Source: Cyanophora paradoxa CCMP329
Lineage: Eukaryota > Plantae > Glaucophyta
DNA length: 37,519 nucleotides
NCBI GenBank assembly: GCA_004431415.1
Contig: QPMI01000403.1
Coordinates: 1-37,519, forward strand
Direction of reading: 5' to 3'
Part shown: positions 2,693 to 28,941 of the stretch, in pieces
How positions within the stretch are numbered: the first letter of the stretch is position 1
How the letters are laid out: the number at the start of each line of letters is the position of its first letter
The notes under the pieces: model-generated
Databases searched by the model: none
What the model was told of the DNA's origin: nothing
Seen by the model: only the letters and a program-made list of their open reading frames with translations
Translations under genes and position numbers: made by a program

Positions 2693-2765
2693 ACACATAT
2701 GAATATTCATATTTTAATCCCTCGGCGTTCCGCCTCAGGATTAAAATATGAATATTCATATGTGT
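2693..2765. other. Left terminal hairpin palindrome (28-bp perfect stem, 17-nt GC-rich loop)
   Basis: ACACATATGAATATTCATATTTTAATCC (2693-2720) pairs with GGATTAAAATATGAATATTCATATGTGT (2738-2765); loop CTCGGCGTTCCGCCTCA contains a GGCG-TTC-CGCC mini-stem. Confidence 0.92.
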
Positions 2766-3515
2766 GATTCGATGTTATATCAATAAAATCGATTAATTTA
2801 TTTGAATTTTCATATGAATTTTCATATTTTTATATGCATTTTCAATTTATTTAATCGATGTTATATCGATAAACTCGATTAATCGATATTGTATCTTAAT
2901 TGTAGTTAATCGGAATTATATCAATAACTTCGATTGATCTTAATTGAATCCTAAATGAATTTAATCGGAATTATATCAATAAATTCGATTAAATCATGTT
3001 CTTTCCGATTAAATCAATTAAATATTTAACTTTGTTACCATAAGTGGTCTAAGTTGACTCACTTTCATAAACATTTTGAACTCTTAGTCTCCTTGAATTT
3101 CTTAAGATGACTCAACTTAGTCAACTTAGTCAACTTTGTTACCATAATCAATCAGGGTGGACTCACTTTTAGATCAACTTTGAAATTTCAAGCAAAAATC
3201 AACTTTGATTTCAAAAGTGGATCTTCTAAGTGGACTCAAAATGTTCACTTTGTGATACATGTTTGCTATAATCCTTACTGTTTATGGTCAGGGTTGACTA
3301 AGTGGGGGGAGTTGACACATTTTTTGAAATCCTTTTTAGAAAACTTTTGGTCCCAAATATTTCCTGTGAAATTTGAGTCAACTCAACCCACTTAGTCAAC
3401 CCTTGCATTGAATTCGTAACAAAATCCATATACTATTACTACTTTTACGATTAATATGAGTCAACCTTGAGTCCACTTTAATATAAATATTATATAATAG
3501 GGGGAATCAAGGGGA
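2693..3515 (+). repeat. Left terminal inverted repeat (~820 bp)
   Basis: 2693-~3065 is the near-perfect reverse complement of ~28568-28941; ~3349-3515 matches ~28388-28554 with a few mismatches; ~3066-3348 has no counterpart on the right. Confidence 0.92.
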
Positions 3516-3711
3516 ATGTTGAGTTTTACTGTAATGAAATCGAATAGTATTCGAAATCTTACATTTGTAGGTTTAGGATGCATTCATATTTTGGCTACAT
3601 CATACAGTAGAATTCTATTGTAAACAATGTCCGGAATCCGGAAAATAATCATTGTAGAAAGCTATTGTAATAAAAAAGATAAATTACCCTGTTTATCATT
3701 ATAGAAACCCA

Positions 3712-4110
3712 TTAAAACGGGAATCTATCATGTTTATGTCTCTCAGTCTTCTCAAATGTGAGGAAATTCATTGTTTTATCGATCTCATCTGCTACTGATT
3801 GTGTTTTATGCTGAGCTTCTTTACCACAACTGAATATATCAATTGCTAACATGCCTTCATTGGAATAACAATGAGCTGTACAATGGCTTTCATCTAATAG
3901 CAGAACCAAAGCAAAACCAGGAGGTGATAGTTTGCCATCAAATATCTCACAGTGTTTATGAACAATCCTAATGCCTTGTCTTAATACTGCTTGTTCAAGG
4001 GTTCCCATAATCCAATTACCTAGGAAGCTTACATGCTCATGTCCTGTTGCAATAGCTGATTTAGCCTTGTAATCAAGCATAACATGAAAGCCTCTGTATT
4101 TAGTCTCCAT
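3712..4110 (-). CDS. speD: S-adenosylmethionine decarboxylase proenzyme (prokaryotic class 1B, SpeD/SpeH-like)
   Basis: 132 aa; G-x-H-V-M-L-D N-terminus, SPPG, LLDESHCTAH with the E-S-H autocleavage/pyruvoyl site, and DIFSCG. Confidence 0.88.
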   Translation of the reverse strand: METKYRGFHVMLDYKAKSAIATGHEHVSFLGNWIMGTLEQAVLRQGIRIVHKHCEIFDGKLSPPGFALVLLLDESHCTAHCYSNEGMLAIDIFSCGKEAQHKTQSVADEIDKTMNFLTFEKTERHKHDRFPF

Positions 4111-4133
4111 TAAGAATACCTTAGAAAAATTAA

Positions 4134-4403
4134 CTAGTCAAACCTAATGCAAATATCCCTATACTCTACTCTGATTGATGAAGTAGCCCTTTTCCTGTGT
4201 GCTTGACTCTTTCTTTTGTTACAGTCCCTACACCTGATCCTTCACATGATTAAAGGATATGTTAGGATCACCTTGTTACATTGCAAACATCTAACAGATA
4301 CTTTCTCTTGAGCTTTGATGTAATGTGTCTCACTGTAATCGAATTTATCTTTACCATGAACTGTCATAGCAGCATCAATAAACTTTTTTGTTTTACTATC
4401 CAT
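4134..4403 (-). CDS. Small DUF723-like Zn-binding/DNA-binding protein (~90 aa; frameshifted, absent from the ORF track)
   Basis: Manual translation MDSKTKKFIDAAMTVHGKDKFDYSETHYIKAQEKVSVRCLQCNKVILTYP..NHV.GSGCRDCNKRK; needs three single-base restorations at ~4233-4254; ATG lies 3 nt after the upstream stop. Confidence 0.62.
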
Positions 4404-4406
4404 ACT

Positions 4407-5258
4407 CTATATATAACCAATATTCTTATGGAGCAGTATCCTGCCCAAAATGGGGAAATATCGATTTGTCCCATAGTATTCAGCATAGGTATTCTGCTTT
4501 GCAATAAAATCGGTTCTCTCAGCATATAATACACACTTGTAGATACCAAACTTGGTGGCTCTAACCAGGAACTGGTAATCTTCTAAACCGAAATTGACTC
4601 CATGATAAGCAATACCAAAATTATCATATGGGGTGATCACAACTGCAAAATTAGGAGTTCCACCCTCTACTTGACAAAGAGCATAAACATCTGGTGGGAT
4701 ATCCACAACTACCTTGTAGTGGTCACCAATTTCAACAAGAGAGTCTACTACTGCTGTTTGTTCATTTACAACAATGGGGAATATCTTTATAATGTATGGG
4801 GCATTCATGCTGGGGACATAGGTTCGAATTCTTGTATTGGGATCAATGGGATTGGGTTGATCATTCACAAATAAAGGCGCTCCAACAGCCCCACCAACCC
4901 TAAGACCATCACCAATATAAGCTCCCCCCGATTTGCAGTTAATAGCTCCCGACCTAGATTCAAAAGAATAAGTAGACAGAGGATCTCCATAGCTATCTGG
5001 GTCTCCATAATGAGCAGAAAAGTTTGCATTTGTGACAAGTAGCTTAGTTGTCTTAACTATTCCATTATTTTTATCACATCTGAGTTCCTGTAATCTCAGC
5101 TTGTGGGTGGAACCAAATGTATTCATTGTAGGTTGGACCTCTGTGGATTGGAGACCCTCAACATCATCAAAGGTAGCATGCTGCAGAACATGGTTTGCTG
5201 GTGCAGCTAATGATAGCTGAGGTGTAATAATTCGTTCAAGTGGGGGTTGCTCAGCCAT
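4407..5258 (-). CDS. Hypothetical virion/fibre-associated protein (paralog A, 283 aa)
   Basis: Long ORF; fibre-like GGAYIGDGLRVGG segment; clear paralogy to 5260-6125 (ELRCDKNNGIVKTTKLLVTNANF vs ELRADKNSGVVKTTRLLVTNANF). Confidence 0.75.
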   Translation of the reverse strand: MAEQPPLERIITPQLSLAAPANHVLQHATFDDVEGLQSTEVQPTMNTFGSTHKLRLQELRCDKNNGIVKTTKLLVTNANFSAHYGDPDSYGDPLSTYSFESRSGAINCKSGGAYIGDGLRVGGAVGAPLFVNDQPNPIDPNTRIRTYVPSMNAPYIIKIFPIVVNEQTAVVDSLVEIGDHYKVVVDIPPDVYALCQVEGGTPNFAVVITPYDNFGIAYHGVNFGLEDYQFLVRATKFGIYKCVLYAERTDFIAKQNTYAEYYGTNRYFPILGRILLHKNIGYI

Positions 5259-5259
5259 T

Positions 5260-6125
5260 TTACATTAAAGGGATATATCTTTTATGGGTTGGGTCATCAA
5301 TAATATCTGGTTCCGAATAAAACCCTGTAACTGAAAGAGTATCAGGAGTTACACCTCTAAGAGCTGATACAGCGGCTATATCTGTTCTCAAACCGATAAG
5401 AGTTATAGTATATAACCCAATATCTGTAACAAACAAGTCAAAGGTGAAATTATTATTATAAACACAGTAGCCATAACCGAAATGATTATATCCCTGAACA
5501 TTGAAATAGTATTTATGACCTACTTGATTGTTGTTGGCTCTACAAAGGGAAAGCATTGCAGATGGAATCGCAAGACCTCTCAGTACTCTTTTGGTTCCTT
5601 CAATTAATTCCGAGTTTTCAAGAGTAACAGTATATCCAATGTAAAATTGAATTAATGGCTGCTGTGCGACAGGAGTATATAATCGAATTCGTTGGGGTCT
5701 TCCACATTTTGCTCTAGAGTATCTGGGACATCATTATACGAAATGGAGGATGAAAGCTGACCTGAAACTCTGCAACCTCCACCAATAAATGCTCCTCCTG
5801 ATCTCACAGTAACAGCAGCAGAATTCTTATCGAAATCAAGGGCTTTCAGATCAACACTGTAAGCATCTGGACCTCCATTAGTAGGTTGGAAGAAGTTTGC
5901 ATTAGTCACAAGAAGTCGAGTGGTTTTAACCACACCTGAATTCTTATCAGCTCTCAGCTCTTTAACTCGAATAATCGAATTTTTATCAAAGGAGTTACCA
6001 TTGGAGTTGGGTCTCTCTGTGGATTCTAAACCACGAACCTCATCATTTACTTCATGCTGGCGAAAATGCATTGCAGGGGATCCAAGGGAATATATAGGCA
6101 GTTGCACACGATTATATTCGCCCAT
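5260..6125 (-). CDS. Hypothetical virion/fibre-associated protein (paralog B, ~288 aa; one frameshift at ~5694-5697)
   Basis: ORFs 5652-6125 and 5260-5556 join if one C is added to a CCCC run, giving DPQRIRLYTP, which matches paralog A DPNTRIRTYVP; GLRTD matches AERTD near the C-terminus. Confidence 0.72.
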
Positions 6126-6165
6126 TGCTTCTTTTACTAAGAAGGAAAGAAAAATAAACGAAGTT

Positions 6166-9100
6166 TTATGCTACCATCTTTCCTGTTGCAATATAACTCA
6201 TTTGATAGTGGAAAAGTCCAATGCTTTCATTAAATGCAGAATTTGCCGAAATTGTTGCATGAATAGTAAATGTTGTTGTTGTGGAACTTGTGACACCATA
6301 TACCAATACATATGAACCACCATTATACCCTTGTTTAAGATTGAGAACCACTTCTGGGGCTGCCGCAAATGCTTTTGGGAATGTGACAACCTGTGGAAAT
6401 CCCCAATGACCTGGACCTGTGATTGTTAAAGATTTTGAGAAACTCCCTGTTTGAATATACTGGTCTTTATTGACCCGTTGTTCTGAAACAAGTTTTGCAA
6501 TCTTTGTATTATCTGTTTCATCCATTGCATAATATGCTCTTGCGTAAGCATTTCCCCGACATAATAACGTTTTATCGTAAATATTTGCGGAATTGTGGAA
6601 AAACCATTGTTCTAAATAAAGAGGTGCATTCGGTTGGTAAATTTGACCGGATCCCACATACATGGTATTGTTGGCTGTAATTGTGTTACCTGTGATCGTA
6701 TTGGCTACAAACGGGTCTAAGGTTGGGAAATCTGTGATCTCCGATTTTGTGTGAGTATGGGCAAAATCTGTTATATCGGTCTTTGAATGACTGTGTGCGC
6801 CAACTGTGTTAGTAGCTGTTGGTTTTCCATAGATATTATCCCAATGGAGATAACCGCTATTTCCTGACGAAGCTGGGTTTTTGCTCCAACCAATAATACC
6901 AAGTAAGTATATTCTTCCTAAAACACCTTGAACACCAATTTTGTGAACATCTCGCAATTTACAGCAACATATAGCCTGAATGTATTTAAGTTGTATGATT
7001 GTGCATATGCATTTACTCGCATTGTGGTTTGAAAACCTTCATTTATATTAAACCCTTTAATGTCAAAATATCGACAGTTGAAGTGCGCTATATAAAAAAT
7101 GTAGCATGTTTTCATTCCTGTTGGAATATCCCAATACATGTAGCTATTACATACTAAATCATTTTGAGCTGCTGTGTATGCTCCCGTGTAGTAACTTATA
7201 TATGATTCATTTGTCCAATCAGCGGATTTCAAAAAATAATCGCCAAGAACACTTATAGCATCAAAGTCAGTAGGAGTAGAGAATGTTGGTTTATTAATTA
7301 AATCATCATAATTTCCACTTGTTGCAACAGTAGCAAATGTTGGTTTGTCTGTGATCTCCGCCCATAAATGAGAGTGGGCGAAATTTGTTATTTGATCTCT
7401 TGTGTGAGTATGGGCGAAATCTGAAATCTCATCTTTTGTGTGAAGATGTGCAAATCGGGTATCTGTAATCGTGAATGTGTGTGGTCAAAATCTGTTATTT
7501 GTGATTTTGTGTGAGTGTGTATGGGCATGTGCAAGTTGCTAAGAGTTAATCTGTCTTTTCCTACAATATTAAGAGTTTCCCGAGTTAAGATTGGTTGAGT
7601 ATTTGGGAAGCCATACATTTGTTGAATATAATACCTCACATCACGTTTTTCATCATTTGTCAATGCTCTGTTGAATACTATAATTTCAGCAATACTACCT
7701 CCAACAATTTGTCCAAATCCAAAAAGTTTACTATGGAATCAGGTAAATAGTTAGTCCCTGTAACAGTTTGGATATCTACACCATTCAAACCTACCGAATA
7801 AGAATCAGAAGTGATTGTTTGGTCTATGTAATACCATTTATTGATCAAAGAGGGAACTGTGATAGAAGGGGTTGGTTGTTGGACTCCCTCTATTGCAAAA
7901 CTTGTCATTCCAATTATTGTATTCGACTTAACACCAAACTGAACACTTCTGTTTGATAAATCTGTCTTCCATATTCGTAAATGATGATCAACAACAGAGG
8001 ATGTTTGGTGGTATTTACCTATTACAAAGTATGTGAGTCCTGATGACCAATCAATTGTTACATTTGGATAGGAAAATGCGGACATACTGGTTCCGGAAGG
8101 AGTTGTTATAGTGAATTGGTTGTTGATTGCTGCATTTGATGTAAAATACGAACTGGTTCCCGAACCCACGTTAATTGATGGAATCAAAGAATTTGGGACT
8201 CTATTAAAAAGATTGGAAGTGGCTGCCGATTCACCATGAACACCTGATGCTTTCCATGCAAAAAGACAATTCGGAATTTGTGAAGCTGGGTCACTGCTTG
8301 CTGTAACTCTATAATACGTTTCACTGAAAGATTCTAAATAGCTATTGGTTCCCATTTTAATCTTTCCACCCACAGTAAGGTTGCTTGTCACCACCAAGTT
8401 GCTGGCGATGGTTCCACCTTTGAGAGGGAGGTAATTTGATAGTGCTAAGTTAAGTTCAGGTTCAGTCACATATACATCAAGTTCTGGTTTTGTCACGTAG
8501 TTTTCGAGGATATTTGCAAGTTCTGTATCATCTACATAATTTTTGCTTTCAAGGTAATCATCTGTTACAACACCCGAAAGGGTTTCATTGTGTAAGTTTT
8601 TCGCCGCCATTCTCTGATTGACTTCTAAGGCGCCACCTGTTGTTGTTTTGATCCACGCCATCTCACATTTCCCGAAATCATCTTTTGGTTGTCCTGCAAG
8701 AGGTGCGTAATTGAATTTGGAGCGACTAAATATTATTTTCGGTCTTGATCCATCGGTTGCGCTTACATCTGTAACATTCACTTGTAAGATGGCGTCTTTA
8801 TCATCATAACTCACAGGATCTAATGGAAGTGGTGGTAAACCTGCTGTTAATGGGATATCATCATTATAATAACTTGTCAAAAAGATTCCTGGTTTGGTGT
8901 CTATAACCCCCACCCCACCTGCTGAAACCATTTGTATCCTCGAAGGTTGTTTAATATATAGTTCGCCATCCATAGTGGTTCCCGCATCTATTCCTTTGCG
9001 ATTCAGGTAATATTCACTTAATTGTAATCTTTCAGCGATGGTATCACTTTGGTAGAAACTGACCCCATAAAATCCATCACCATTTACTAAATCGCCTGTT

Positions 9101-12100
9101 GATGCAAAACGTGGTTTTTCATCTATTTCACTCCATGGGTGCCTGTGGTTAGAGTTTGTAATTTCGGAATAATCATGAGTGTGTGAATCCGGAGGAAAGG
9201 TTAACGGAGGATTTGTGATATGCTCCCATAAATGAGTGTGTGCAAAATCTGTGATCTGATCTTTGGTGTGAGTATGGGCAAAGTCTGTGATCTGATCTTT
9301 GGTGTGAGTATGGGCAAAATCTGTGATCTGATCTTTGGTGTGAGTATGGGCGAAATCTGTGATTTGCCCTTTGGTGTGTGTGTGGTTTTGTATCCAACCT
9401 TGAACCACATTCGACGTTGGATGATGTGGTAAATTTGCATTACTTGTTACTGTGAGATAATCAATTACTGTTTCGGGTGATGTGATCTTTAAACCTCTGT
9501 AAATGGTCAGAGGTTGAGTAATTGGGAATCCATACATTTGTTGAATGTAATACCTTACTTGTTGCCTTTCTGCTGTGGTTAATGCTCTGTTGAAAACAAT
9601 AACTTCACTAACACTACCGCTAAAAAGGGTTCCGATTCTAAAAGTAGTCACTGTTGAATCAGGTAAGTAATTTACTCCTGTAACAGTCCCAATATCAACA
9701 CCATTTAATCCAACTGAATAGCTGTCTGATGTAAGTGTTTGATCTGCATAATACCATTTATTAATCAGAGAAGGAATTGTAAAAGCCATTTGAGTCTGAT
9801 TGACCCCATTAATGATGAAATCAGTTGTCCCTAATGTGGTGGAGAATCTCGCTCCATATCTAATAATTCTCGAAGGAGTAACTGTCTTTGAAATATCTAT
9901 GTGAGCATGTGATAAACTGTTTGTGGGATGGTATCTACCCACATAGAAATATGTCAAACCTTGCGACCAATCTATTATTCTACCATTGACTATTGAAGAT
10001 GCTGTGACTGAGGTATTCAAAGCGCATGTTAAACTCATCTGATTATTTGTAGATATATTGGAAGCATAAAAGGGGTTGCCTGTGGCGCTCACCGTGAGCG
10101 ATGGGATCGAACTTGATACTCTATTATAAAGAAGTGTAGAACCTGCACTTTGACCTTCTGTTCCTGATGCTTTCCATGCAAAAATGCAATTGGGAATATT
10201 TGAAGCTGGATCATTGCTGGCTGTTATTTGGTAGTAATCTTTGTTCAACTCTTGCAATGTAGTAAACGCATATGAACCAACTGTAAGAATTCCATTCACT
10301 TTTAGGTTACTGGTCTCTATATTGCTACTGTAAATATTACTATTTACTGTAAGGTTTCCTGTGATTGTCCCACCAACAAGTGGAAGATACTTAGATAATT
10401 CATCAGCAAGTTCAGATTTTGTTACATAATCTCCAAGCATAGCAAGAGTTACGAAATTTACAAGTATTACAGCAGTAAGGTAATCCTCTGTGACCACTCT
10501 CGAAATATTTTCATTGTGTATGTTTTTTGCTGCCATCCTCTGATTGGCTTCCAGAACCCCACCATAATCTGTTTTAATCCATGCAAGCTCTGCCCTTCCA
10601 TAATTATCATTTGCAGTTCCCACTATGGGAATGTAGGAATACTTATCTCGACTGAAAACTATCATTGGTCTTGAGCCATCTAAACTGCTTACATCTGCTA
10701 CATGAACCTGTATAGCAGAGTTGTAATTTTGGTAGGTTGCTGGGTCTGTTGGGACTCTGAATGTATCTGTGGGAATGTCAGCCTCCATGTAGCTTGACAC
10801 AAAGATATTTGGTATGGTTGCTCCTGGTGGTGGTGGGGTTTCAAAAGAGCCTGGTAATGTCCTAATATGAAGTGGTCCTCTCATAGCTGAATTTGCAAGT
10901 GTCCCATTCACATGTACATAGTGTTCATTCAAAAAGATTCTTTCTGGGACATTACAAGTCTGATAAAGAGAAACCCCCAAGTTATCAAGAGGCTCAACTT
11001 TTGCGAATTCTGGTTGGTCATTGATCTCATCCCAGGTGTGTTCATGGTTGCTTGCTGCAAACTTATCTGGAATCCCATCAATATCACCCCAATCATGCCT
11101 GTGGTCTTCTGGTGGGTATTTCTGTGGTTTGCCTAAGATCTCATCCCAGTCATGATTGTGATCCTCTGGGGGATACTTTGCAGGTTTATTATTAATTTGT
11201 TCATAATCAGGAAAGAACTCCCAGATCTCAGGTCGAAATCCATCTGGTAGTAATTCCTCATGGGGTTCATAAGGTTGCTCATAATCAACAGCTGGTGGAT
11301 CATGCCCATCTGGCAAATACTCCTCATCAGGTTCATAGTTCTGCTCATACTCAAACTCTTGGGGATCTAAGCCATCTGGTAGTATCTCCTCCTCATTGGG
11401 GTCAAACTGATCATATTCATATTCTTGTGGGTCAAAACCATCTGGTAAATATTCTTCCTCATCTGGAACGAATTGATATTCATCAAGCTCTAATATATCG
11501 ACTTCAGGAGGTAAATACTGCTCATCTATTTGCTTTCTGGGTTCAATTATAGGTTTATTGCGAACTTGCTCCCAACTAACAATATGCTGCCCAAAAGCAA
11601 CTGTCTCATCTGCTGTGTACTCTCTGCCTGGTTGCTTTTTCGGTGTTAAATCCGGTGGATCCCATGGAAGAGGGAAGGGAACTGGGACAGGTCCATAATA
11701 CTCAAAGATCTCTCTTATGGTCTTCTCACTAACAAGCTTCTCTCCATTTGCATACACATTGCTGCCATGGATATTTCGCCATTGCCTGGTTCGAATTCCA
11801 AGGTCTTTCACATTGCTATACAAAGGCAAAAGGTGCCTATCCATTTCAACAAGATCAGGATGTAAATGGATTGCTACTGGCTGACTGGGGCTACTGTTGA
11901 TTGTAATTGATGGCTTTTTTTGATGGACATCTTTTGGAGTAAAGAACCCAAAAGGCTCATTCCTTGCAAAGTCATATGTAATATCCTTGGGGTAGACATC
12001 ATTTGTGTAGGAGACCTGATTTGTGTTGGCAATGGGACCCACTTGCAATACTTGGGGGACCTCAGCTTTTGCAGTGCTGCCCTCATTGTAAATTCGCAAA

Positions 12101-12471
12101 CCTGTGTTCTGTTTGCCCTGCTCATCTTGAACATTGAAAATCAATCGACCACTATCGAACCTAGAAGGTATATCTGGGTGAGTGCCACTGGTTTTGAGTT
12201 TCCTAGGTCTCCTTCTTGTTGCTTTGATCTCTGCTACTTGGTTGGCTTTCACATTACCCAAACTAAAAGCAACACTGACATCCTCTTTATCTGGATCGGT
12301 TTGATTCACAGATAAAGCATGCTCCCTTGATTGAGTCTTGGATGAATTATCGGAGCTGTGGTCGATTGAAACTGAACCCTTTACTTTAATGTTATCAAAG
12401 TTCACATGCTTGGTGCTGCTTGCATTATCATCTTGAATTGTTTCTAGATTTGGTGGGTAATTGAAGCTCAT
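6166..12471 (-). CDS. Giant fibre/spike protein (~2100 aa reconstructed from ORF pieces 7678-12471, 7388-7663, 6918-7232 and 6166-6957)
   Basis: Phage-fibre-type HTHTKDQITDFA and HxHxWxEIxxKP repeats, YLPLxGGT motifs, ATVATSGNYDDLINKP, two LamG/ConA-like modules (EVIVFNRALT), C-terminal H-type-lectin/gp53-like domain (VTFPKAFAAAPEVV); three single-base restorations (~7723, ~7453, ~6985) join the pieces. Confidence 0.8.
9232..9385 (-). repeat. 36-bp tandem coding repeat (HTHTKDQITDFA, about 4 copies) in the fibre gene
   Basis: Near-identical units such as aaatctgtgatctgatctttggtgtgagtatgggc; related units near 7380-7530 and 6730-6800. Confidence 0.85.
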
Positions 12472-12514
12472 GGCTTTTACTATATGGATTTATAAAATTC
12501 CTGATAAGTAAAAG

Positions 12515-14070
12515 ATGCCTCTCAAAGTAGTTCTCAGTTTGTCAGGGGGAGGTGCAAGGGCATTATCATAACCAGGCTGCTAAAAGAAATCGAAAATCGA
12601 ACTGGCAGGAGAATAATCGATCTTGTGGATCTTGTGAGTGGAACTTCCACTGGTGGGATCATTGCAATAGGTTTGAATATAAGGCATCCTGATAAACCAG
12701 GTGAACCTAAACTGACAGCAAACGATTTACACAATATTTACCTAACTCAACTGCCCTTGATTTTCGCAAATCCTCGAAATATAATCGAAAATGCCCTTTT
12801 TAATACAAAGTATGATGTGGGACCCTTGGAGACTGCAATCAATTCAGTTACTGGTGAATCACTAATACAGGATTCCCTAAAGGACATTGTGATCACATCC
12901 TTTGATACTCAGAATATGAAACCAATATTTATCACAAATGACAACAATTACAACTTTATGCCTTGTAAGATTGCTGCTAGGGCTACTTCTGCTGCTCCTA
13001 CATATTTCTCTCCTGTAAGCATTGTTGATTTCAATCGGGGAGTATATGTCTGTCTAATTGATGGTGCCATTTCGGGAAACAATAATCCCAGTGTGTGTGG
13101 TTACAGCCATGCAAAGAAAATTTACAGTGATGATGATGATATTATAGTAATAAGTATATCTTGTGGAGAGGTGGACCCACATTTAGAGTCTGATTATGTG
13201 GGTTATGCTTATGAGACTGTCAACAGCTGGGGCATTCTCTCATGGATTGCCTCAACAGATGGAAGCCCATTGATTAACATGCTCATGGCTGCAAGTGAGC
13301 TTTCTGCCCTTGATAAGATGGAGGAGTTGTTACCCTACAACTATGATCAGGATTATGGGAGATACTATAGGCTATCAGTCCCACTTCCAAATCATATAGT
13401 AAGCTCCCTGGATGACACTTCTAAAATCCCAGACATGCTTGCATTCACTGAAACATACATTGCAGCAAACAATGATATGATTAATAAGCTTTGCAGCATT
13501 CTAGTAGCAAACTATGAATTAAAGAACCCTTCAAAGGCTTACATATCATCCACTCTCACTACATCACCTCCTTTGGATGCAAATTGGTATCAGCTTGCAG
13601 ATGATGCCTTCACTGCCTCATCCTCTGTGACAGGTAAAGAGCCTTTCATGGCTAGACCTTCAGCATTTGGCTGGGAAGCTGGAGCCTATGCTCCTGAGCA
13701 GATATGGGAAACCCCCACTGAATACCTTCAAGTTGCTTTCCCATATACTTTCGAACTCTCCTCTGTTATTGCCTATGGTTCAGGGGACACCAATGCTTTT
13801 ATTAAGACTTTCAATGTGGCAACATCCACTGATGGGATCAACTGGTCTTTTATTCGATCAGATGGGCAGAACAAAATATATGTCTGTGAGAACATTAACA
13901 ATGCTCACAACTCAGGTGATGTTGCTTTATTGAGTGGATTTCCTCTCAGCATCAAGGATGCTTTTTACATAGGTTTTTCTCTCAGAATCAAGTATATTCG
14001 CATTTATCCCCTTGTGTATGTGAATGCTCCCACAATGAGAGTGGACTTTACAGGTGCCTTTATTCGATAA
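12515..14070 (+). CDS. Patatin-like phospholipase fused to a C-terminal F5/8 type C (discoidin) domain (~518 aa; one frameshift at ~12558-12560)
   Basis: Reconstructed N-terminus MPLKVVLSLSGGGARG (oxyanion motif), GTSTG nucleophile elbow, RATSAAPTYF, DGA; C-terminal FTASSS...EYLQVAF...STDGINW...KYIRIYP...MRVDFTG discoidin pattern. Confidence 0.88.
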
Positions 14071-14992: not shown

Positions 14993-15021
14993 TTTAATAT
15001 ATAAATATAGATAAAAGAAGA

Positions 15022-19056: not shown

Positions 19057-19078
19057 TTATCTCTGTTTTATTAGAGAT

Positions 19079-19351
19079 ATGGACATAATACGAAAGTTCT
19101 TCGAGATGTTCAGTCTGCATGTGGTGAGCAATTGCCACAGTGGATGTTGTGAGACAACAGTGGAGTTTGAGATGTCAGATAATGAGGATAATGCCTCAGA
19201 AGCAAGAGAGAGAAGGAGGTCTACAGTTTCTGTGGAGTCAATGCCAGCAGACCCCACAGAGTATACATATGAGCAACAGGAGTATCCAAGGAGAAGTTCT
19301 CTGTCAGCAGAAAACGTTTTCTCTGGGAATATAAATGGAGGATACTATTAG
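19079..19351 (+). CDS. Small hypothetical protein with CHSGCC motif (90 aa)
   Basis: ATG at 19079 after the shared upstream motif; MDIIRKFFEMFSLHVVSNCHSGCC followed by an acidic/Ser-rich tail. Confidence 0.55.
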   Translation: MDIIRKFFEMFSLHVVSNCHSGCCETTVEFEMSDNEDNASEARERRRSTVSVESMPADPTEYTYEQQEYPRRSSLSAENVFSGNINGGYY

Positions 19352-19580
19352 TTTAATCGAGTTTACCAGTGATGAACCTGTTACTGAGGGGTCTATAAGA
19401 CACATTCTGGCAATGCAGAAACGATATAGAGAGGACCCAGAATATAGAGAGTATAAAAAGCAGCAAGCCTTGGCATCCTATTATCGAAGAAAAGCCCAAA
19501 AAGAGGAGCAGAGACCCAGAGGTAGACCAATTAAATATTATTTGCCTACTGAAAGTAGCAATGGACCCCCAGGTCTATAA
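19335..19580 (+). CDS. Small basic protein with AT-hook-like RPRGRP motif
   Basis: QKRYREDPEYREYKKQQALASYYRRK...RPRGRPIKY; paralogous to 19733-20059. Confidence 0.65.
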   Translation: MEDTISLIEFTSDEPVTEGSIRHILAMQKRYREDPEYREYKKQQALASYYRRKAQKEEQRPRGRPIKYYLPTESSNGPPGL

Positions 19581-19732
19581 GATAATTGAGAAAAAGCGGT
19601 CTCAGTATGCCACTGAGGCAGCTATAAAAGTTTACAGACAGGAACTGGTGTTCGCAACAAAAAATGACTTAAGGAAAAAGTAGATAGATTGTATTGAGGA
19701 AAAATTATTTTCGTATCTACTATTAAAGAGAA

Positions 19733-20059
19733 ATGCCGAATATCCGCAAGATACTCACAGATGATGAAAAAGCAGAGAAGCTGAGACTGAAAAGGGAGCA
19801 AGATGCCCAAAGAAAACGCGAAGCCTATCATAAAAAGAAGCAGGAACGATTATCCCAAGGAGCCGCTACAGTTCACACACCAGAAGAACTCAAAAAGATT
19901 GCCCTCAGACACCAGAGGAAATACAGGGAAAATGAAGAATATCGCGAGCAAAAAAAGGCAAAAGCGCTGGAATATTACCACAAGAAGAAAGATGAACAGC
20001 CCAAGAAACCCAAAGAGCATAAACCGGTTGGAAGACCTCGAAAATATATCGAAGAATAA
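19733..20059 (+). CDS. Small Lys/Arg-rich protein with AT-hook-like GRPRK motif
   Basis: QRKYRENEEYREQKKAKALEYYHKKK...KPVGRPRKY; upstream TATCT..TATTAAAG motif. Confidence 0.72.
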   Translation: MPNIRKILTDDEKAEKLRLKREQDAQRKREAYHKKKQERLSQGAATVHTPEELKKIALRHQRKYRENEEYREQKKAKALEYYHKKKDEQPKKPKEHKPVGRPRKYIEE

Positions 20060-20276
20060 ATTCTCGATCGAAACAAATTTTGTAGAAATCGATTTGATCG
20101 GAGGCAAAAAAATGACAGCTTTCTTCCCTCTTTTTTAAAACTGTACCTATATATCGAGACAGTATCCCGACCCAAAACTACTTAAGGACTTGGCAAATAA
20201 TAGGATATATATAAAAGACAATTCCTCCTTCCGAAATTATTTTCTTCGTTAAAGGTAGAAGTCCCCAAAATCGAAA

Positions 20277-22871
20277 ATGAACAAAATCGAGAAATTCGCC
20301 ACCCCTGTTGAAAATGCTACATTCCTTAGTACTCTCATTGGTGATCGCAACAAGGTCACCCATGTATTTGATTCTGCCGAAGATGCCCTTGAAGCCATTG
20401 ATAATAGCAAGGTTAAGACCTGGGCTGAATGCATTCAACCTGAGCAAGTGACCAGAGTTTACCTGGACCTGGATAAATTCGCTGATTTGAAGGAGAACAT
20501 TGCTGATAACTATGCTGAGGCGGAAACTGTTGTAAGAGAGATGAGAGATAAGCTATGGAAGCGATCTGGTACCACTTCTATTAACGATATTGCTGTTGCA
20601 GTTCGCCATAGAAGGGTTTATTTGATTAAGGAGGATGTCACCAAGTTCAAGATTTCAGCCCACTTTATTATTAAATCGCTTGCATGCAAACATGAAGATA
20701 TCCCCAAGCTTTTCAAAGCGATGGGATTGGTGAAAAATGAGGATTATGACAGTGGAGTTTACAGCTCCACACAGAACCTAATCTGCCTCAATTGCTGCAA
20801 AGGTGAGACTCTGGATGCTCAAAATAAGTCGAAAAAAGATGTTGATAAAAACGTTTGCTTTAAGAAATTCGTTGACTGTGACAAAGTGTTAATGCGAAAT
20901 GAGGACTTCTTTGTATCTTACTTCTCAGCTACTACTAAACTTGTGGATGAATCGAATATTTCTGCATTCGCAAATTATAGCCCTGAGCCAAAACCAGTTA
21001 AAAAGGAGCCAAAAAGTGATAAAGTGAAGACTGAGAAGGTAGAAGCTGAAAAAGACACTGAACCCGAAAATCCTGTTACTTTCGAACTGCTACAAAGTGT
21101 TATAATGGGTCTGAATGGTGAGAGAGCTAATGAGTATAAAACTTGGATTGATGTAGGACTGGTCATCATCAATGTTGGGGAAGACAACAAGTTCACCCCT
21201 AAAATGCAAGCTGAACTCTTCCACCAATTCTCAGAACAGAGTGACAAGTATGATTATGATGAATGCCAGGAGAAGTTTACACAGCTTCGCAGAAGCAAGA
21301 AGAAGGCTGAGCCTGGCAAAGTGTTGACCTTCAAATCCTTGGTTTATTGGTTGAGCAAAGATAACAATGAGCTTTTCAAGGAACTCTTCCCCAAAAAGTA
21401 TGCATTCCTACCAGAGGACACAGATGAAATCGATTACAAGACTGCAAGTATCCCTCCTTTGGCTGAACATTACAATGTGCATAAGAGGTATTTCAATGCT
21501 CGAATGCATCATGTTGAAAATGTTGGTTGTGTGATGCTCTGGGATGAACAACTACTTTGCTGGATGCCCAAAGATATTGGGAAGCTCTCTACAAAGCATT
21601 TCCCCCACTTGATGCATAAGGTGATTGTGAATGAGGGGACAGATAATGAGAAAGAGAAATGGGAGCAATCATTTAGGAAATGGATTGTGGATCCAACAGC
21701 CACAAGATCAACTTACATGGATTTCCTTCCCCCTCCTGCTACTCTCAGTGCAAAATGCAAGTCTGTATTTAATCTCTATCCAGGAATGAAGGTCGACCAT
21801 CAGCAATTCGAAAATGCTCCAGAGGATGTAACTGCTGAGATGATTAAGCCTTTCCTAGATCACTTGTTCTTAATGTCTGGTGAGGATCAAAATACCTATG
21901 AATATCTGTTGAAATGGTTTGCCCACATGCTGCAAAAGCCTGGGGAACTCAATGGAGTATCCTTAATCTTCATTGGTGAGCAGGGAACTGGTAAAAATGT
22001 GTTGGTTGATACTTTCCAAAAGAAGATACTTGGAGATGCCCTAAGTTATGCAACTGGAAAGCCAAAAGAGGATCTGTTTGGTCGATTTGCCCACAATAGA
22101 GAGGATAAGATCTTGATTGTTGTGAATGAAGCCTCAGGCAAGGACACATTCGAAAATAATGATATGCTCAAAGATCTCATAACTTCTGATAAGATTGTAA
22201 TTGAACACAAAGGGATAGATTCATACACAAAAAGCAACTTTGCCAGGATTATATTCACCAGCAATAACAACATTCCAGTGAAAATTGAAGCTGGAGATAG
22301 GCGATTTGTGGTTGTTGAAGTTAGTAAGAAATTCGCAAAGGATAGGTCATACTTCCTTCCACTTGTAAAATGGCTAAATGATCACTGCAATATTCGAAAC
22401 ATTGCCCACTATTTGAGAACCAAAGTTGACTGTGAGGATGTGAACTGGATTGCTGATAGACCCCTTACAAATAAATACTATTTAGCCCAACAGGTGTGCG
22501 CTCCAATCATTCTTATGTTCACTAAGTGGCTTGTGGATCGAGGCTTAATTTCCGAGAATAAATGCAAGTCTGGTAGCCTTGTGGAAACCTGGAAGTGGTT
22601 CCAGGAGTTTATTACCAGCAATAAATATAAAAACGATTATAATAGTCGCCGATATTATACTGAAATGAGAAGTGTTACATATATCCAAGTGAAAACTACA
22701 AATGGCAAACAATACTATCATTTCCTATTCCCACAAGTATTTGAGGAATTCAGAAAGATGAAGCTTGTAGATGATGAGACTATTGAGGAAGAAGCTAATC
22801 CAAGGATGAAACAGGCCCTACCTGCTGCTGATCCTGATGCATCAGATTATGATTCTGATGTTGAAGTTTAG
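20277..22871 (+). CDS. Primase-helicase: AEP primase + PriCT-2 + SF3 (D5-like) helicase
   Basis: AEP motifs VYLDLD, SAHFII and DSGVY; PriCT-2 YKTWIDVG..FHQFSEQSDKYD; Walker A GEQGTGKN, Walker B VVNEA, motif C FTSNN, DRRF arginine finger. Confidence 0.92.
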   Translation: MNKIEKFATPVENATFLSTLIGDRNKVTHVFDSAEDALEAIDNSKVKTWAECIQPEQVTRVYLDLDKFADLKENIADNYAEAETVVREMRDKLWKRSGTTSINDIAVAVRHRRVYLIKEDVTKFKISAHFIIKSLACKHEDIPKLFKAMGLVKNEDYDSGVYSSTQNLICLNCCKGETLDAQNKSKKDVDKNVCFKKFVDCDKVLMRNEDFFVSYFSATTKLVDESNISAFANYSPEPKPVKKEPKSDKVKTEKVEAEKDTEPENPVTFELLQSVIMGLNGERANEYKTWIDVGLVIINVGEDNKFTPKMQAELFHQFSEQSDKYDYDECQEKFTQLRRSKKKAEPGKVLTFKSLVYWLSKDNNELFKELFPKKYAFLPEDTDEIDYKTASIPPLAEHYNVHKRYFNARMHHVENVGCVMLWDEQLLCWMPKDIGKLSTKHFPHLMHKVIVNEGTDNEKEKWEQSFRKWIVDPTATRSTYMDFLPPPATLSAKCKSVFNLYPGMKVDHQQFENAPEDVTAEMIKPFLDHLFLMSGEDQNTYEYLLKWFAHMLQKPGELNGVSLIFIGEQGTGKNVLVDTFQKKILGDALSYATGKPKEDLFGRFAHNREDKILIVVNEASGKDTFENNDMLKDLITSDKIVIEHKGIDSYTKSNFARIIFTSNNNIPVKIEAGDRRFVVVEVSKKFAKDRSYFLPLVKWLNDHCNIRNIAHYLRTKVDCEDVNWIADRPLTNKYYLAQQVCAPIILMFTKWLVDRGLISENKCKSGSLVETWKWFQEFITSNKYKNDYNSRRYYTEMRSVTYIQVKTTNGKQYYHFLFPQVFEEFRKMKLVDDETIEEEANPRMKQALPAADPDASDYDSDVEV

Positions 22872-23063
22872 GTTTACTCAAAAGTGGACTCATGGTTGAC
22901 TCAAATTTATCATAAAAGACCCAAACAGTCTTTTATTTACGGTTTATTTATCGATTAGGTTGACTAAGTGGGGGGAGTTGACTCATTTTTTCACAGATTC
23001 TAAAAAAGGACTCTGCCCTAAAAAGAAATAAAAAGTGCCTCAACTCCACCCACTAAGTCAACC
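22872..23063. promoter_or_regulatory. Internal copy of the TIR motif cassette (inverted GGTTGACTAAGTGGG...CCCACTAAGTCAACC pair plus GACTCA motifs); candidate origin or regulatory site
   Basis: 22958-22990 nearly matches 3292-3324; 23041-23063 resembles 3379-3401; AAGTGGACTCA.GGTTGACTCA at ~22882-22903 matches the right TIR at ~28425-28446. Confidence 0.7.
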
Positions 23064-23114
23064 AAAAAATGATTTAAGAGATAGAAAAATATATTTATAT
23101 GTAAGTAGTAAGAA

Positions 23115-23465
23115 ATGGCTGGAACAGATCATGATTCTGGATCGATCTATATGATTGAGAGTGAAGAATTGAATAAAGTTTATATAGGGAGAACCTCACA
23201 GCCACTACAAAAAAGATGGAGACAACACAAATCAGGTCAAATGCCATCAACAGCAGACCTATGCAAGGCTTCGGATGTGAGGTTTTCAGTCCTTTATTCA
23301 ACTAAGAAGGGTGGGCATGAAGACCTTATGAACAGAGAAGCATATTACATGTATCTCTTTGAACCTTGGATAGTCAATCTACAAAAACCGAAATCTCGAT
23401 TTAGGATTAATAGGTTTTTGCGATTTCATTCAGAGGAAGCCAATGGATCCATTAAAACATTTTAA
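23115..23465 (+). CDS. GIY-YIG endonuclease
   Basis: SIYMIE...VYIGRT...LQKRWRQH...REAYY...VN pattern. Confidence 0.88.
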   Translation: MAGTDHDSGSIYMIESEELNKVYIGRTSQPLQKRWRQHKSGQMPSTADLCKASDVRFSVLYSTKKGGHEDLMNREAYYMYLFEPWIVNLQKPKSRFRINRFLRFHSEEANGSIKTF

Positions 23466-23525
23466 ATTGCGTTTAGAACATCCTAAAATAAAATATCCCC
23501 TTAGAATAGGAACAAGTTAGGAATA

Positions 23526-26500
23526 ATGCCCCGAATTACCAACAAACTCATAAGGGAGAAGAAATGGGAACTCATGGGATTGCTGGGAACACTATATGCA
23601 GCCCATGAAATAACAGAGGATGAATATGACCGGGAAATAGATTTAATTGCAAGGGGCAGACCCACTTTAAGCAGATTAACCAGAAAAGCAAATAACCTAT
23701 ATGATAAAATTGAAACCTTGGATGAACTGGATAGGCTTAGGCAAATAGAACCAGAGGCAGAAGATGGAACAGCCATGAATGAATTATATCGCTGGCTCAC
23801 ATACAGAGCCAGAAGGGAAGTTGTTGTAGATGTGATTGAATTCCTGGATAGAATTGCTACATCCCTTCCAAATCGATTAAAGCAGGGTTTAGATCAATTC
23901 AGGGCAATCAAGGTTCGCTTGTCTTTTATCTGCAAGTTCGTTAAAGTGAGCAATCCACAGGTTTGGATATCGAAATACATTTACAGTGATTACTTTGTAT
24001 TAACCAGGTCGAGAAATATTCGAACTGAGCTGAATAAAGCAGCCCAAATGTGTCAGGAGCAGATGAATGTGGTTGATAGCTATCGCTTAGAAAGAATTGA
24101 AATACTCAGAGTGGCTATTATGAGTTATGCTCCAACTGGTGGATGCTTTCTACAAACCCCAGAGTGGATTGCTAGGAAGAGAGCCACAGTGAATATTCGA
24201 AATATAGATGATTCCTGCTTCGAAAATGCGATTTTAGCCTCGATTTACAGAAAATCTATTAACTCCAATAAGAGGAATGAGCTTTCACAATATCGCAAAT
24301 GGAAATACTCAGCAATCGCTTATAATCCGCTGGCTCTCAATTTCGACAATATCCCATTCCCTGTTGCCTGTGATGCTGAAATAATTGATAAATTCGAGGC
24401 TCAAAATGCAGGCATTAGCATTAATATATTCGGAATCGATGGAGAGGTTGTTTATCCCTGCATCAATCCAGTAACCCAGGCAGAAAGCATAAGGTTAATC
24501 TCATGCTGATATTTGATGATGAAGGGAATGGTCACTATATTACAATCATGTCCCTTTCAAGGCTATTGAAAGTAAACCATGAAACATACAATGATCAGAA
24601 GTTACACTACTGTGATACATGCTTATCTCGATTCAGGTCTGAGGCTAAACTCACTGCTCATGTGGACTCAAACAGATGCATTGATTGGAGACTCTCAAAG
24701 GGAATCACCCCTAAACCTGAGACCACCATAGAGTTTGGACTGAAAAACCTCAGGAAAACTGTGTGGCTTCCTGTTGTGGTTTACTGCAAGATTGAACATA
24801 GAAGCATCCCCATTGATGCATCGAAATCCAAGAGGGAAGTCTCAGCAGTGAACCTTAGAGTAGTCACTGGGGAAGATGTTCAAGATTTTCGATTTGAGGG
24901 TCAGGATCCAATGGGAGGTCTCTTTGAATGCTTGGAGTCCAAAGCAAGAGAACTAATCGATTTCCTGTTTACCAATATTCCCATGAATGAACTCACAGAT
25001 GAGCAGAAAGCTGTATATAGGGCTACCAAACACTGTTACCTTTGCAGTGAGAGGTTCACCAAGGAGAACTTTAAATGCAGGGATCATGATCATCACACAG
25101 GTAATTATATTGCTCCTGCATGCAGAAACTGCAATCTCCATAGGAGAATCTCAAAGCAAACCAAAGTTGCAGTTGTTGTTGACCAAATGGATGACTGTGG
25201 GACATTCATTTTCAGAAAAATAGCAGGTATGGGTGATAAAAAGCGAATCGAAATCCTTTCGAAAAACTTTGATCAATACCTTTCATTGCAATGGGGTCTT
25301 TACAAGTTCATTGATGCAAGCAATTTTATGGACTTTGGAGCTGCTGATGTAGATGAGTTAATGAACAAATTCCAAGCCTTCAGAAGGCTTTCACACTCAG
25401 TATATGGACTTGACCCAGTTCATTATGTATCTGCACCTGGGTTATCTTGGGATGCTATGCTTAGGACCACCGAGGCAAAAATAGAGCTTATAAGTGATGT
25501 AGAGCAATACGAATTTGTTGAGAGGGGAATCAGGGGTGGCTTTGCAACAATGCCTTGTAGGTATGCTGAGGCTGATGGTGAGAACTCCCACATTATGCTG
25601 TTTGATGCTAACAACTTGTATGGCTACTGTTTGAGTCAGCCAATTCCAGTTGGTGATTTTAGATGGGAGACCGAATTCAACCCACAAGATAACAGATCCA
25701 GTTTCCTGGAAGTTGATCTGGATTACCCAATTAGGCTGTTTCTAGATCACAGTGATTTCCCTCTAATTATTAACAAGAAAATAGTAGAATATGCCGAATT
25801 ATCACAATATCAAAAAAGCCTATTGGATCTCTCAGGAGAAGAGCTTGATAAAACCCCTAAGCTAACTGCAACCTTTGGTTCTGTGACCAACTATGTAGTT
25901 TCTGAGCCTCTTCTACAATACATGTTAGCTAAAGGTGTGAAACTAAAGAAGGTTCACAGGGTCCTATCATTTACTGTGGCTCCTGTAATGAAACCCTACA
26001 TTGAGCTGAATACTGATATGAGAAGGAAAGCAGTGAATAAATTCGAGGCTGATTTCTATAAGCTCATGAATAATTCAATCTATGGGAAATGCATTGAATC
26101 ATGTAGAGGTCGATCTGTGGTTAAGATTGCCAACACTGAGAAGCTATTTATGAAATATGCAGCTTCCCCATTGGTGAAATCAACAAGTCCCATAAGTGAA
26201 AGGGCAGTTGCCTTTGAGTTTTACACAAAGCATGTGAAGCTAGATAAGCCTGTTGCAATTGGGGCTTATGTTTTGGATGCAGCCAAACTGCATAACTACA
26301 AGTTCTTCTATGATACTGTAAGGTCCCAGTGGTCAAAAGCAAAGTTACTATTCCATGATACTGATTCCTTTTGTCTATATATTGAATCTAAAACCCTTCA
26401 AAAGGACCTAGAGAATATATCCTTTAATCTGGACTTAGGAGGACCTAACAGAATGACCCCAGGTAAATACAAAAATGAGATGCCAGGTTCTGCTATATTG

Positions 26501-26770
26501 GAGTATGTAGGTCTGAGAGCCAAAGTTTACTGTTTCAGAACAGCTGAGATTGAGAGAAGTAAGCTATCTGGGACTTCCACTGAGGAACTCCAATTCAATG
26601 ATTTTAAGCAGTGTTTATTTGCAGGTATCAGCAAGACTGTGACTGCAAAGCAGAAAAGAAGGGCAGATCACACAATAATAGACACTGTGAGTAGAAGGGT
26701 TGCCCTAAACTGCTTTGATGCAAAGAGATACATCTTACCAGATGGTATTAATTCTGTTCCTTTTAATTAA
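23526..26770 (+). CDS. polB: Polinton-type (protein-primed family) DNA polymerase B polyprotein (~1081 aa; one frameshift at ~24456-24458)
   Basis: Adding one C joins 23526-24509 and 24503-26770 (VYPLHQS..HKVNLML..GHYITIMSLSRL); VNIRNIDDSCF (vOTU-like), CxxC..RDHDHHTG..CRNCNL (endonuclease VII-like), motif A DANNLYG, motif B KLMNNSIYGK, motif C DTDS, GLRAKVY. Confidence 0.93.
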
Positions 26771-26773
26771 GAG

Positions 26774-28159
26774 ATGCCAGCAACTGGAAGAATAGTTAGG
26801 AGAACCACTGAGCAACTGCAAGGAAACCTACTGCCTATCACAGTTCCCAAGGAGGAAAAAGGGGAATCTCGAATTGTTAAAAAGTCTGAGATGAAAGAGC
26901 TTGTCCCAGTAGAGATCCCAGTTGCTATTGCAGTGAAAGAAACTAGCAAGATTGCCAAGAGATTCTATGATGTGAGAACAGGTTACAAAGGGCTTCAAGC
27001 TATGAGGGCTGAGTTACCAGATGAATCCTATAAGCAGTTGCAAGAGTTCTATAAAAAGCAGGAAGTTGTTCAGATCAATGCACCTGCTATATCTAGGAAG
27101 AGAGATCCCATGGTTCCAATAAGGCAACCCCTTGATACCTATGTGATTGATTTGCTCTTTTTCCCAGCTTATAAGAAACAAAACAATGGCTATGATACAT
27201 TTATGACTGCAATGGAATCAACACTGAGAACTGGATATATCATACCTATAAGGGATAAATCAGCTCTCACTACATTAGCTGCATTTAAACAGCTTGAGAT
27301 GAGAGTAGCAAGACCCATAGTAAAAGTTCAATCAGATGCTGGGAGTGAATTCCAAAATCGAATATTCCAGGAGTATTTATCTAGTAAATACATAGAACAC
27401 CAAGTGAGTGGAACTGCAGACCATAGGAGCCAAGGTCGAATTGAAGCCTTTAACAAGCAGATTAAGAGACTGATCACAAACTACTGCATAGCTAATAACA
27501 CAGCTAGATTCTTTGATGTGTTGGGTGATATTGAATATAATTACAATAACACAGTTCACTCAGCTACTAAGATGAAGCCAGGTGAAACTACAGAGGAGCA
27601 TTATAGGTATATAGTGGGATTAGAAGATGAAAGATTCAAGAAATCAATAGCTTATCTTGATACCATGCAGCCTGGCATGTTTGTTAGAGTGAAAGTAGAG
27701 AAGAACCCCTTTGCTAAACAGGGTAACAATTGGTCTAGGATGGTTTACACTGTTGATAGTAGAGAAGGCTTTAAGTTTAAGCTAAGGAGTCCCACTGGAG
27801 AGATCATAGATAACAGATTTGCATTCCATGAGCTGTTGCCTGTGAATGCAGTTGAGTATCTGGAAACACCCACAGTGGATGCCTTAGAGCAAGCTAAAGA
27901 GGAAGCTAGGGTTGATGCTTCTATAAGGAGAGAGGGCATAGAAGCTGCTAATGAAGTCCCAGATAAGCCTTTGATAGAGGCTAGAAAGGAGAAGGCTGGC
28001 AAAGTTAACAGGGAACTCAAAAAGCTCACTATAGCAGGCACACAGAAACTTTCAGAAGTGAATAGCCAGAGATGGTATAATGACTTTCAGACTACTAAGG
28101 AGTCATATACAGCCCCTAAACCTCAAAGAACACTAAGAGAAAGGACCAAAACTAGCTAG
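26774..28159 (+). CDS. int: Retroviral-like (RVE) DDE integrase
   Basis: VIDLL (D), QSDAGSEF (D), QGRIEAFNKQIK (E), YNNTVHSATKMKP, SH3-like PGMFVRV...NWS; consistent with the 6-bp TSD. Confidence 0.93.
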   Translation: MPATGRIVRRTTEQLQGNLLPITVPKEEKGESRIVKKSEMKELVPVEIPVAIAVKETSKIAKRFYDVRTGYKGLQAMRAELPDESYKQLQEFYKKQEVVQINAPAISRKRDPMVPIRQPLDTYVIDLLFFPAYKKQNNGYDTFMTAMESTLRTGYIIPIRDKSALTTLAAFKQLEMRVARPIVKVQSDAGSEFQNRIFQEYLSSKYIEHQVSGTADHRSQGRIEAFNKQIKRLITNYCIANNTARFFDVLGDIEYNYNNTVHSATKMKPGETTEEHYRYIVGLEDERFKKSIAYLDTMQPGMFVRVKVEKNPFAKQGNNWSRMVYTVDSREGFKFKLRSPTGEIIDNRFAFHELLPVNAVEYLETPTVDALEQAKEEARVDASIRREGIEAANEVPDKPLIEARKEKAGKVNRELKKLTIAGTQKLSEVNSQRWYNDFQTTKESYTAPKPQRTLRERTKTS

Positions 28160-28387
28160 TTTCATAGCTGAAAACTCGTTTTTTCCAAATATATGTATGT
28201 GTGATATACATATATGCATATAATATACACATAGTCTTGTAGATCTTATCAAGCGCTTCACAGCGATATGCAGAACGTTGCGTTTTGATGATCTGGTGAT
28301 GAGATATAACCGTTTGAAGATGCGAAAGTCACTTGCCATAGTAGACTTGGTGAAACCATCAATCTAACACTGCATTTAGTAAGCATC

Positions 28388-28941
28388 TCCCCTTCATTCC
28401 CCCTATTATTTTATATTTATATTTAAGTGGACTCAAGGTTGACTCATATTAATCGTAAAAGTAGTAAAAGTATATGGAATTTGTTACGAATTTAATGCAA
28501 GGGTTGACTAAGTGGGTTGAGTTGACTCAAATTTCACAGGAAATATTTGGGACCTGAAGGTTTATAAAAAGTGAGTCAACTTAGACCACTTATGGTAACA
28601 AAGTTAAATATTTAATTGATTTAATCGGAAAAGAACATGATTTAATCGAATTTATTGATATAATTCCGATTAAATTCATTTAGGATTCAATTAAGATCAA
28701 TCGAAGTTATTGATATAATTCCGATTAACTACAATTAAGATACAATATCGATTAATCGAGTTTATCGATATAACATCGATTAAATAAATTGAAAATGCAT
28801 ATAAAAATATGAAAATTCATATGAAAATTCAAATAAATTAATCGATTTTATTGATATAACATCGAATCACACATATGAATATTCATATTTTAATCCTGAG
28901 GCGGAACGCCGAGGGATTAAAATATGAATATTCATATGTGT
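28388..28941 (-). repeat. Right terminal inverted repeat (~555 bp)
   Basis: Reverse complement of the left TIR, lacking an internal ~280-bp segment. Confidence 0.92.
28869..28941. other. Right terminal hairpin palindrome
   Basis: Exact reverse complement of 2693-2765. Confidence 0.92.

Follow-up and report, generated by a model that had tools for sequence, protein, structure and literature searches.

Terminal hairpins and an eroded family B DNA polymerase in an endogenous Polinton-like virus of Cyanophora paradoxa

The 37,519-nucleotide (nt) contig QPMI01000403.1 of the glaucophyte alga Cyanophora paradoxa CCMP329, analyzed over its whole length and hereafter called the window, contains at positions 2693–28941 an element of 26,249 bp that resembles an endogenous Polinton-like virus (PLV). 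This locus raises the question of whether it represents a new kind of virus, as the original prediction proposed, and of how a genome with hairpin ends and a Polinton-type DNA polymerase (pPolB) is replicated. We conclude that it is very probably a complete, recently inserted endogenous PLV of an already catalogued, multi-copy C. paradoxa family. Its genome may replicate by self-priming from the 73-nt terminal hairpins and not by protein priming, a proposal drawn from sequence that we consider evenly balanced. Taken whole, a PLV of the catalogued family, inserted in an intron and self-primed by its hairpins, is the best explanation and the one towards which we lean. The gene list adds little, being already tabulated; the apparent novelty lies in the end structure and the polymerase variant of a known family.

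Endogenous PLVs are recognized from the presence of terminal inverted repeats (TIRs), a target site duplication (TSD), a GC shift and a length of 14–40 kb, and we found all of these here. GC content is 33–43% inside the element versus 50–70% in the flanks, and the 6-bp sequence TCAGCG stands at both borders (Table 1). The TIRs (2693–3075 and 28557–28941) are 99% identical, with 381 of 383 aligned positions matching, 2 mismatches and 2 gaps, and a second pair of inverted arms (3332–3515 and 28388–28571) is 94% complementary. A search for the empty site, suggested with the original prediction, succeeded in all four DNA runs: past position 2696, the left-flank contig reads on into letters equal to window positions 28952–28971, with one TCAGCG copy between the flanks. 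The TSD is therefore proven and the insertion recent, and the TIRs and 6-bp TSD first read from the window stand. The filled junction was also recovered, as a contig spanning 2667–2719 in run X3 (depth 52, against 71.5 for the flank). Because C. paradoxa is reported to be probably haploid (PMC6704402) and flank depth is about double that of other host contigs, the likelier account is a locus present in duplicate, of which one copy is filled; the alternative is a mixed culture. Contig depth, a rough guide only, is 10–25 times that of the flank for the element and 52–59 times for the hairpin, and this excess suggests that the family has tens of copies.

The ends carry the structure that most distinguishes this element. 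The terminal 73 nt on the left and right are exact reverse complements of each other, and each folds into a hairpin, its stem perfect over 28 bp, whose 3' base is paired flush with the terminus. The hairpin ends of the original prediction are thus upheld by folding z scores of –14.2 and –13.3, equaled by 0 of 200 shuffles, in contrast to –0.87 for the TIR stretch beside the hairpin. Besides the two ends, the element holds no palindrome with an arm of at least 14 nt. In runs X1, X2 and X4, a contig leaves the element at the hairpin apex (window 2728) and enters other DNA; it represents another copy, at a different place, that was broken in the loop, which is what cleavage of a cruciform or hairpin would produce. 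Sub-terminal sequence also recurs inside the element, in a block at 22881–23063 that is 69% identical to the left arm over 195 nt and 72% to the right arm over 120 nt and sits between the primase-helicase gene and the GIY-YIG, pPolB and integrase genes. The 256 nt at 3076–3331 are unique to the left TIR region and hold extra copies of a GTTGACT motif that is also present in this block.

The polymerase, too, departs from the Polinton type. We read pPolB across its frame break with X and aligned it full length to Polinton enzymes, the comparison set being 119 homologs (the best 120 of 848 matches minus P0002). Among these, KGxxPY and ExoIII are present in 119/119, the ExoII Asp in 118/119 and the ExoI Asp in 115/119, the other four being gaps; all are gone in the window pPolB and in P0002, which is 47% identical to it. 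The exonuclease span is reduced to 17 amino acids (aa) from 108–159 in the homologs, a loss of about 100 residues; the palm motifs remain intact, as do the Cys and His of the vOTU. The terminal protein (TP) loop has 20 residues versus 24 (the length in 106 of 111 rows), and the Gly/Pro next to the hydroxyl residue, found in 108 of 111 rows and described in all D1 domains (PMC11071308), is missing in the window, P0002 and P0089. Since P0002 has every one of the exonuclease and TP-loop losses, they are not the decay of one copy. A palm tree joins the window enzyme and P0002 at support 1.0, its deeper nodes being weak. Mavirus and Tlr1-type enzymes provide known cases of exonuclease loss accompanied by gain of an SF3 helicase. 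Of the traits of a classical Polinton, pPolB and rve are present, the exonuclease is not intact and no maturation protease was found.

Hairpin self-priming is favored because hairpin ends occur here with a pPolB from which both the proofreading motifs and the usual priming loop are missing. In the model that we propose, the 3' palindrome of a released single strand would fold over and pair flush with itself, and the exonuclease-less pPolB would extend the folded 3' end, aided by the AEP-SF3 primase-helicase. A nick followed by fill-in would restore the open palindromic end for insertion by the RVE integrase, and the A32 ATPase would package genomes into protease-free capsids with lectin fibres and lipase. 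Hairpin priming has a precedent in Halocafeteria (bioRxiv 10.64898/2026.07.28.741278). Several points weigh against the model: the Halocafeteria palindromes are mostly in non-pPolB elements, and the same preprint offers accidental annealing as an alternative; the link between hairpin and pPolB rests on one end type, that of the window; the few named proteins among the 119 homologs are animal, protist diversity being under-sampled; protein priming may persist, since the TP loop still has a Ser and a Tyr and the vOTU has kept its dyad; and the contigs do not separate flip from flop end isomers, 10 differences in one X15 end contig being compatible with either.

Ordinary protein priming via the remaining Ser or Tyr, with palindromes that either have a role in excision, packaging or the binding of integrase or simply arise when strands anneal, is a possible but less probable account. 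The TP-like domain and vOTU Cys/His are kept, pPolB and DDE integrase are typically coupled, and the accidental annealing considered for Halocafeteria could account for the palindromes; however, the loop is shortened and its Gly/Pro gone in both the window and P0002, and each end bears an exact palindrome, which has high depth in 4/4 runs. We think it distinctly unlikely that the element is a composite in replicase turnover, in which a hairpin-ended AEP-SF3 virus gained a transpoviron-like GIY-pPolB-integrase cassette and AEP-SF3 replicates while pPolB is accessory, a scenario compatible with hairpin priming and different only in the enzyme. The internal TIR-like block brackets this cassette, mobile replication cassettes bracketed in this way have been described, one of them on a QPMI01 contig of C. 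paradoxa (bioRxiv 10.64898/2026.10.13.758929), and PF03175 was tabulated in only 49 of 156 family elements (Bulzu 2025). Nevertheless, the block may be a mere promoter since it lies upstream of gene clusters, the palm motifs are fully conserved despite 47% identity to P0002, and half the hairpin depth in X3 (about 2,100) is near that of the PolB contigs (2,139–2,555), which weakly suggests that this polymerase is present in most copies with hairpin ends.

The copy in the window could also be a dead, decayed fossil, which we judge unlikely. About seven frame breaks interrupt the major capsid protein (MCP), pPolB, lipase, fibre (two seen near 7725 and 7455, a third inferred near 6970) and one paralog genes, and CpG depletion fits decay as well. 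However, the TIRs are 99% identical, four single bases that 4/4 runs show within 801 nt of host flank are missing from the window, its right flank shows 7–9 gaps over 3.1–3.6 kb against run contigs, and contigs of two of three DNA runs have an extra homopolymer base at the pPolB break, although these contigs stem from the family and not from this copy, and the left-half breaks lie outside the comparison. Because the window is indel-prone in the flank and the runs supply this extra base, and as assembly errors of this kind are documented for such elements (PMC10120064), the frame breaks are probably assembly errors.

Hairpin priming for PLVs was proposed only recently, for elements mostly without pPolB, whereas this element couples hairpin ends with loss of the pPolB priming loop and proofreading motifs. 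A broader and tentative reading is that it belongs to a glaucophyte-specific lineage with a deeply isolated capsid, still transposing in culture, in which a Polinton pPolB turned hairpin-primed and proofreading-free; it would then be a living link from Polintons that prime with protein to DNA viruses that end in hairpins. As the alga is an axenic model that offers an empty site and tens of copies, protein and hairpin priming can be directly tested against each other.

The MCP, a double jelly-roll protein, stands very isolated and falls in no named group. Its only homolog among 5,946 scored candidates is the EukProt C. paradoxa protein P0001 (57% identical), and a profile search of 1.84 billion representatives returned 7 matches at E ≤0.001; a deeper profile gained no additional proteins, and a PDB sequence search with a two-row profile gave chance matches only. 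The fold was read from a model of P0001 (9 rows, pLDDT 65, pTM 0.71), the single-sequence model of the MCP itself reaching only pLDDT 37. The P0001 model is a double jelly-roll (Foldseek E 2.5e-18) with Z scores of 31 to PBCV-1, 22–29 to other capsids of nucleocytoplasmic large DNA viruses (NCLDV), 19 to PRD1 and 16.5–16.6 to Sputnik and mavirus. As modeled, it is therefore not a virophage-type (Virophaviricetes) MCP (Z 16.5–16.6 versus 24–31 to NCLDV). NCLDV-like capsids are the norm for PLVs, so this likeness is not itself novel. Scanning metagenomes with the MCP alignment and with the hairpin stem produced no matches, and searches of viral_contigs with the MCP, ATPase, integrase and P0126 gave no close relatives. 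With P0002 as query, the same search turned up a single distant locus, L001 (30%), whose exonuclease motifs are intact and which has no structural genes in common with the element. This unrelated viral contig (L001, 1–14451) encodes an intact Polinton-type pPolB, a GIY-YIG protein and, labeled by eye, apparent capsid, penton and ATPase open reading frames (ORFs).

This capsid ties the element to previous surveys. P0001 and a closer C. paradoxa protein are listed as HHpred-confirmed MCPs in Table S2 of Bellas 2023 (PMC10120064), which reports 366 MCP matches in two clusters (272 and 94) outside named groups. Table S6 of Bulzu 2025 (PMC12220804), whose counts are group totals and not per-element co-occurrence, gives for 156 endogenous viral elements (EVEs) of Glaucocystophyceae Pox_A32 in 139, minor capsid protein in 97, lipases in 89, rve in 85, AdoMet_dc in 66, PF03175 in 49, GIY-YIG in 5 and a polinton-type MCP profile in 2, with zeros for all nine protease columns and tyrosine recombinase; its text also refers to fusions of discoidin with patatin and to an H-lectin-bearing fibre of C. 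paradoxa. The presence of adintovirus-like sequences in this alga has been noted as well (PMC8502044). The element shares with this EVE family both the MCP cluster (57% to P0001) and the gene repertoire, at the level of group totals. Its gene set is thus already known at group level, and the suggestion that it was undescribed falls, since Table S6 has ATPase, pPolB, rve, lipase and AdoMetDC without protease. The idea of a new lineage survives in part: the capsid is isolated and its cluster has no named group, but the gene content was already tabulated. Put otherwise, the genes are described, the MCP is ungrouped, and we found no description of such ends for the family. Our literature searches found neither hairpin ends nor the pPolB losses nor the internal block for C. 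paradoxa PLVs, although the deposited Bellas and Bulzu annotation files may contain the element; intron insertion and an empty site are likewise absent from the accessible parts of the text and tables of these two papers.

Table 1. Coordinates of the element, its repeats and its genes in the window.
Feature	Position	Strand	Evidence or remark
Predicted host GT-AG intron containing the element	2657..28999	-	88 nt when empty; predicted from sequence
Left TSD, TCAGCG	2687..2692	.	present once in the empty site
Left terminal palindrome, 73 nt	2693..2765	.	28-bp perfect stem, flush with end
Left TIR	2693..3515	.	2693–3075 (55-nt subrepeats) and second arm 3332–3515; 3076–3331 without right counterpart
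AdoMetDC homolog, prokaryotic type	3712..4110	-	Pfam AdoMet_dc 4.5e-11; ESH self-cleavage motif kept
Protein without family match	4407..5258	-	paralog of 5260..6125 gene (44% over 135 aa)
Paralog of 4407..5258 gene	5260..6125	-	one frame break near 5700
Fibre, likely a single ~2,100-aa protein	6166..12471	-	tail-fibre repeats (PHROG matches); LamG-like and C-terminal H-lectin-like matches below cutoff
Patatin lipase fused to discoidin (F5/8 C)	12515..14070	+	Patatin 3.3e-15, F5_F8_C 2.1e-6; break near 12550
Minor capsid (penton) protein 1, likely	14060..14992	-	DUF5901 E 0.018, weak
Minor capsid (penton) protein 2, likely	15022..16032	+	Atlas 0.97 to viral clusters including DUF5901 (13% of members); recognition below tool threshold, weak
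MCP	16086..17452	+	double jelly-roll by model of homolog P0001
A32-like packaging ATPase	17512..18243	+	Pox_A32 PF04665 E 3.7e-12
244-aa charged ORF and four small ORFs	18322..20059	+	no family matches
Primase-helicase, open frame	20277..22871	+	PriCT_2 and DUF5906; AEP-type motifs by inspection; SF3 Walker motifs
Internal copy of sub-terminal TIR motif block	22881..23063	.	
GIY-YIG endonuclease	23115..23465	+	Pfam 1.2e-10
pPolB	23526..26770	+	DNA_pol_B_2 6.1e-13 and Endonuclease_7; TP-like domain with shortened loop, vOTU, endonuclease-VII-like finger, eroded exonuclease, intact palm; break near 24455
RVE/DDE integrase, open frame	26774..28159	+	rve 1.4e-4, below Pfam curated cutoff; D-D-E motifs present
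Right TIR	28388..28941	.	
Right terminal palindrome	28869..28941	.	exact reverse complement of left
Right TSD, TCAGCG	28942..28947	.	

Most of the genes first named from the window were recovered, namely MCP (by the model of P0001) and, through Pfam matches, ATPase, RVE integrase, Polinton-type PolB, AEP-SF3, patatin and AdoMetDC; the GIY-YIG nuclease had been overlooked. Of the full virion module once proposed, MCP, ATPase and fibre hold, and the two pentons are weakly supported. The absence of an adenain-like protease is confirmed within the element: there is no Pfam or PHROG match to an adenain/Ulp1 maturation protease, no unannotated gap of more than 300 nt between genes that would leave room for one, and none of the 4 matches of a six-frame motif scan lies in an annotated reading frame. 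There is good support for integration through the RVE enzyme, with its 6-bp TSD. Two of the small ORFs downstream of the ATPase gene contain GRP(R/I)K motifs, which we take to resemble AT-hooks. The fibre gene holds an internal duplication of about 1.9 kb (7593–10613; 72–76% DNA identity) and 36-nt HTH-rich repeats. Viral AdoMetDC homologs can use ornithine or arginine instead (PMC9992855).

The element is likely inserted in an intron of a host gene, to judge from a predicted GT-AG intron that shares position and phase with introns of two upstream repeat units of that gene. The gene is multi-exon, on the minus strand, with at least four similar repeat units (1–2686 and 28948–32400), and its product is likely secreted or at the surface; a CUB label was dropped, as 0 of 6 exon pieces had a Pfam match. 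Several other insertion sites share 3–6 bases with the TSD next to the TIR, one sharing all six, hinting at a target preference, with listing bias possible. CpG observed/expected is 0.37 in the element versus 1.26–1.28 in the flanks, and in C. paradoxa, which also has remnants of giant viruses, CpG on viral genes is methylated (PMC12344493). Host CpG methylation likely keeps the integrated copy silent; against this, low CpG may reflect viral avoidance instead of methylation decay. Beyond the host gene, an exact 145-nt direct repeat (34442–34586 and 37375–37519, up to the window end) lies in a GC-rich repetitive region (32700–37500) that is possibly another mobile element.

Compared with known systems, the element is closest to the endogenous PLVs of C. 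paradoxa (Bellas 2023; Bulzu 2025), with which it shares MCP cluster, A32 ATPase, minor capsid, pPolB, rve, primase-helicase, lipase-discoidin fusion, H-lectin fibre and AdoMetDC, with neither protease nor tyrosine recombinase; the hairpins, exonuclease and TP-loop loss, intron site and empty site of the window element were not found in the accessible text and tables of those papers. The virophages and PLV subtype 4 of Halocafeteria seosinensis likewise have palindromes in TIRs beside the TSD, an RVE integrase and a hairpin-priming model (bioRxiv 10.64898/2026.07.28.741278), but Halocafeteria elements have mostly non-pPolB replicases (and 52 nt in subtype 5), whereas the window element has 73 nt, both a pPolB and an AEP-SF3, and a capsid unrelated to theirs. 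Polintons/Mavericks (Polintoviricetes, with alpha-adintovirus-type pPolB) share the TP-vOTU-pPolB architecture (about 35% identity to best matches), rve, TIRs and 6-bp TSD; here, in contrast, no protease was found, the exonuclease is eroded, an AEP-SF3 is added and the MCP is undetected by polinton profiles (2/156 in Bulzu 2025). Mavirus-type virophages also combine a pPolB without most of the exonuclease, a separate SF3 helicase and rve, but the modeled capsid of our element is far nearer NCLDV (Z 31) than mavirus/Sputnik (Z 16.5), no protease was found in it, and its pPolB keeps the Polinton endonuclease-VII-like finger.

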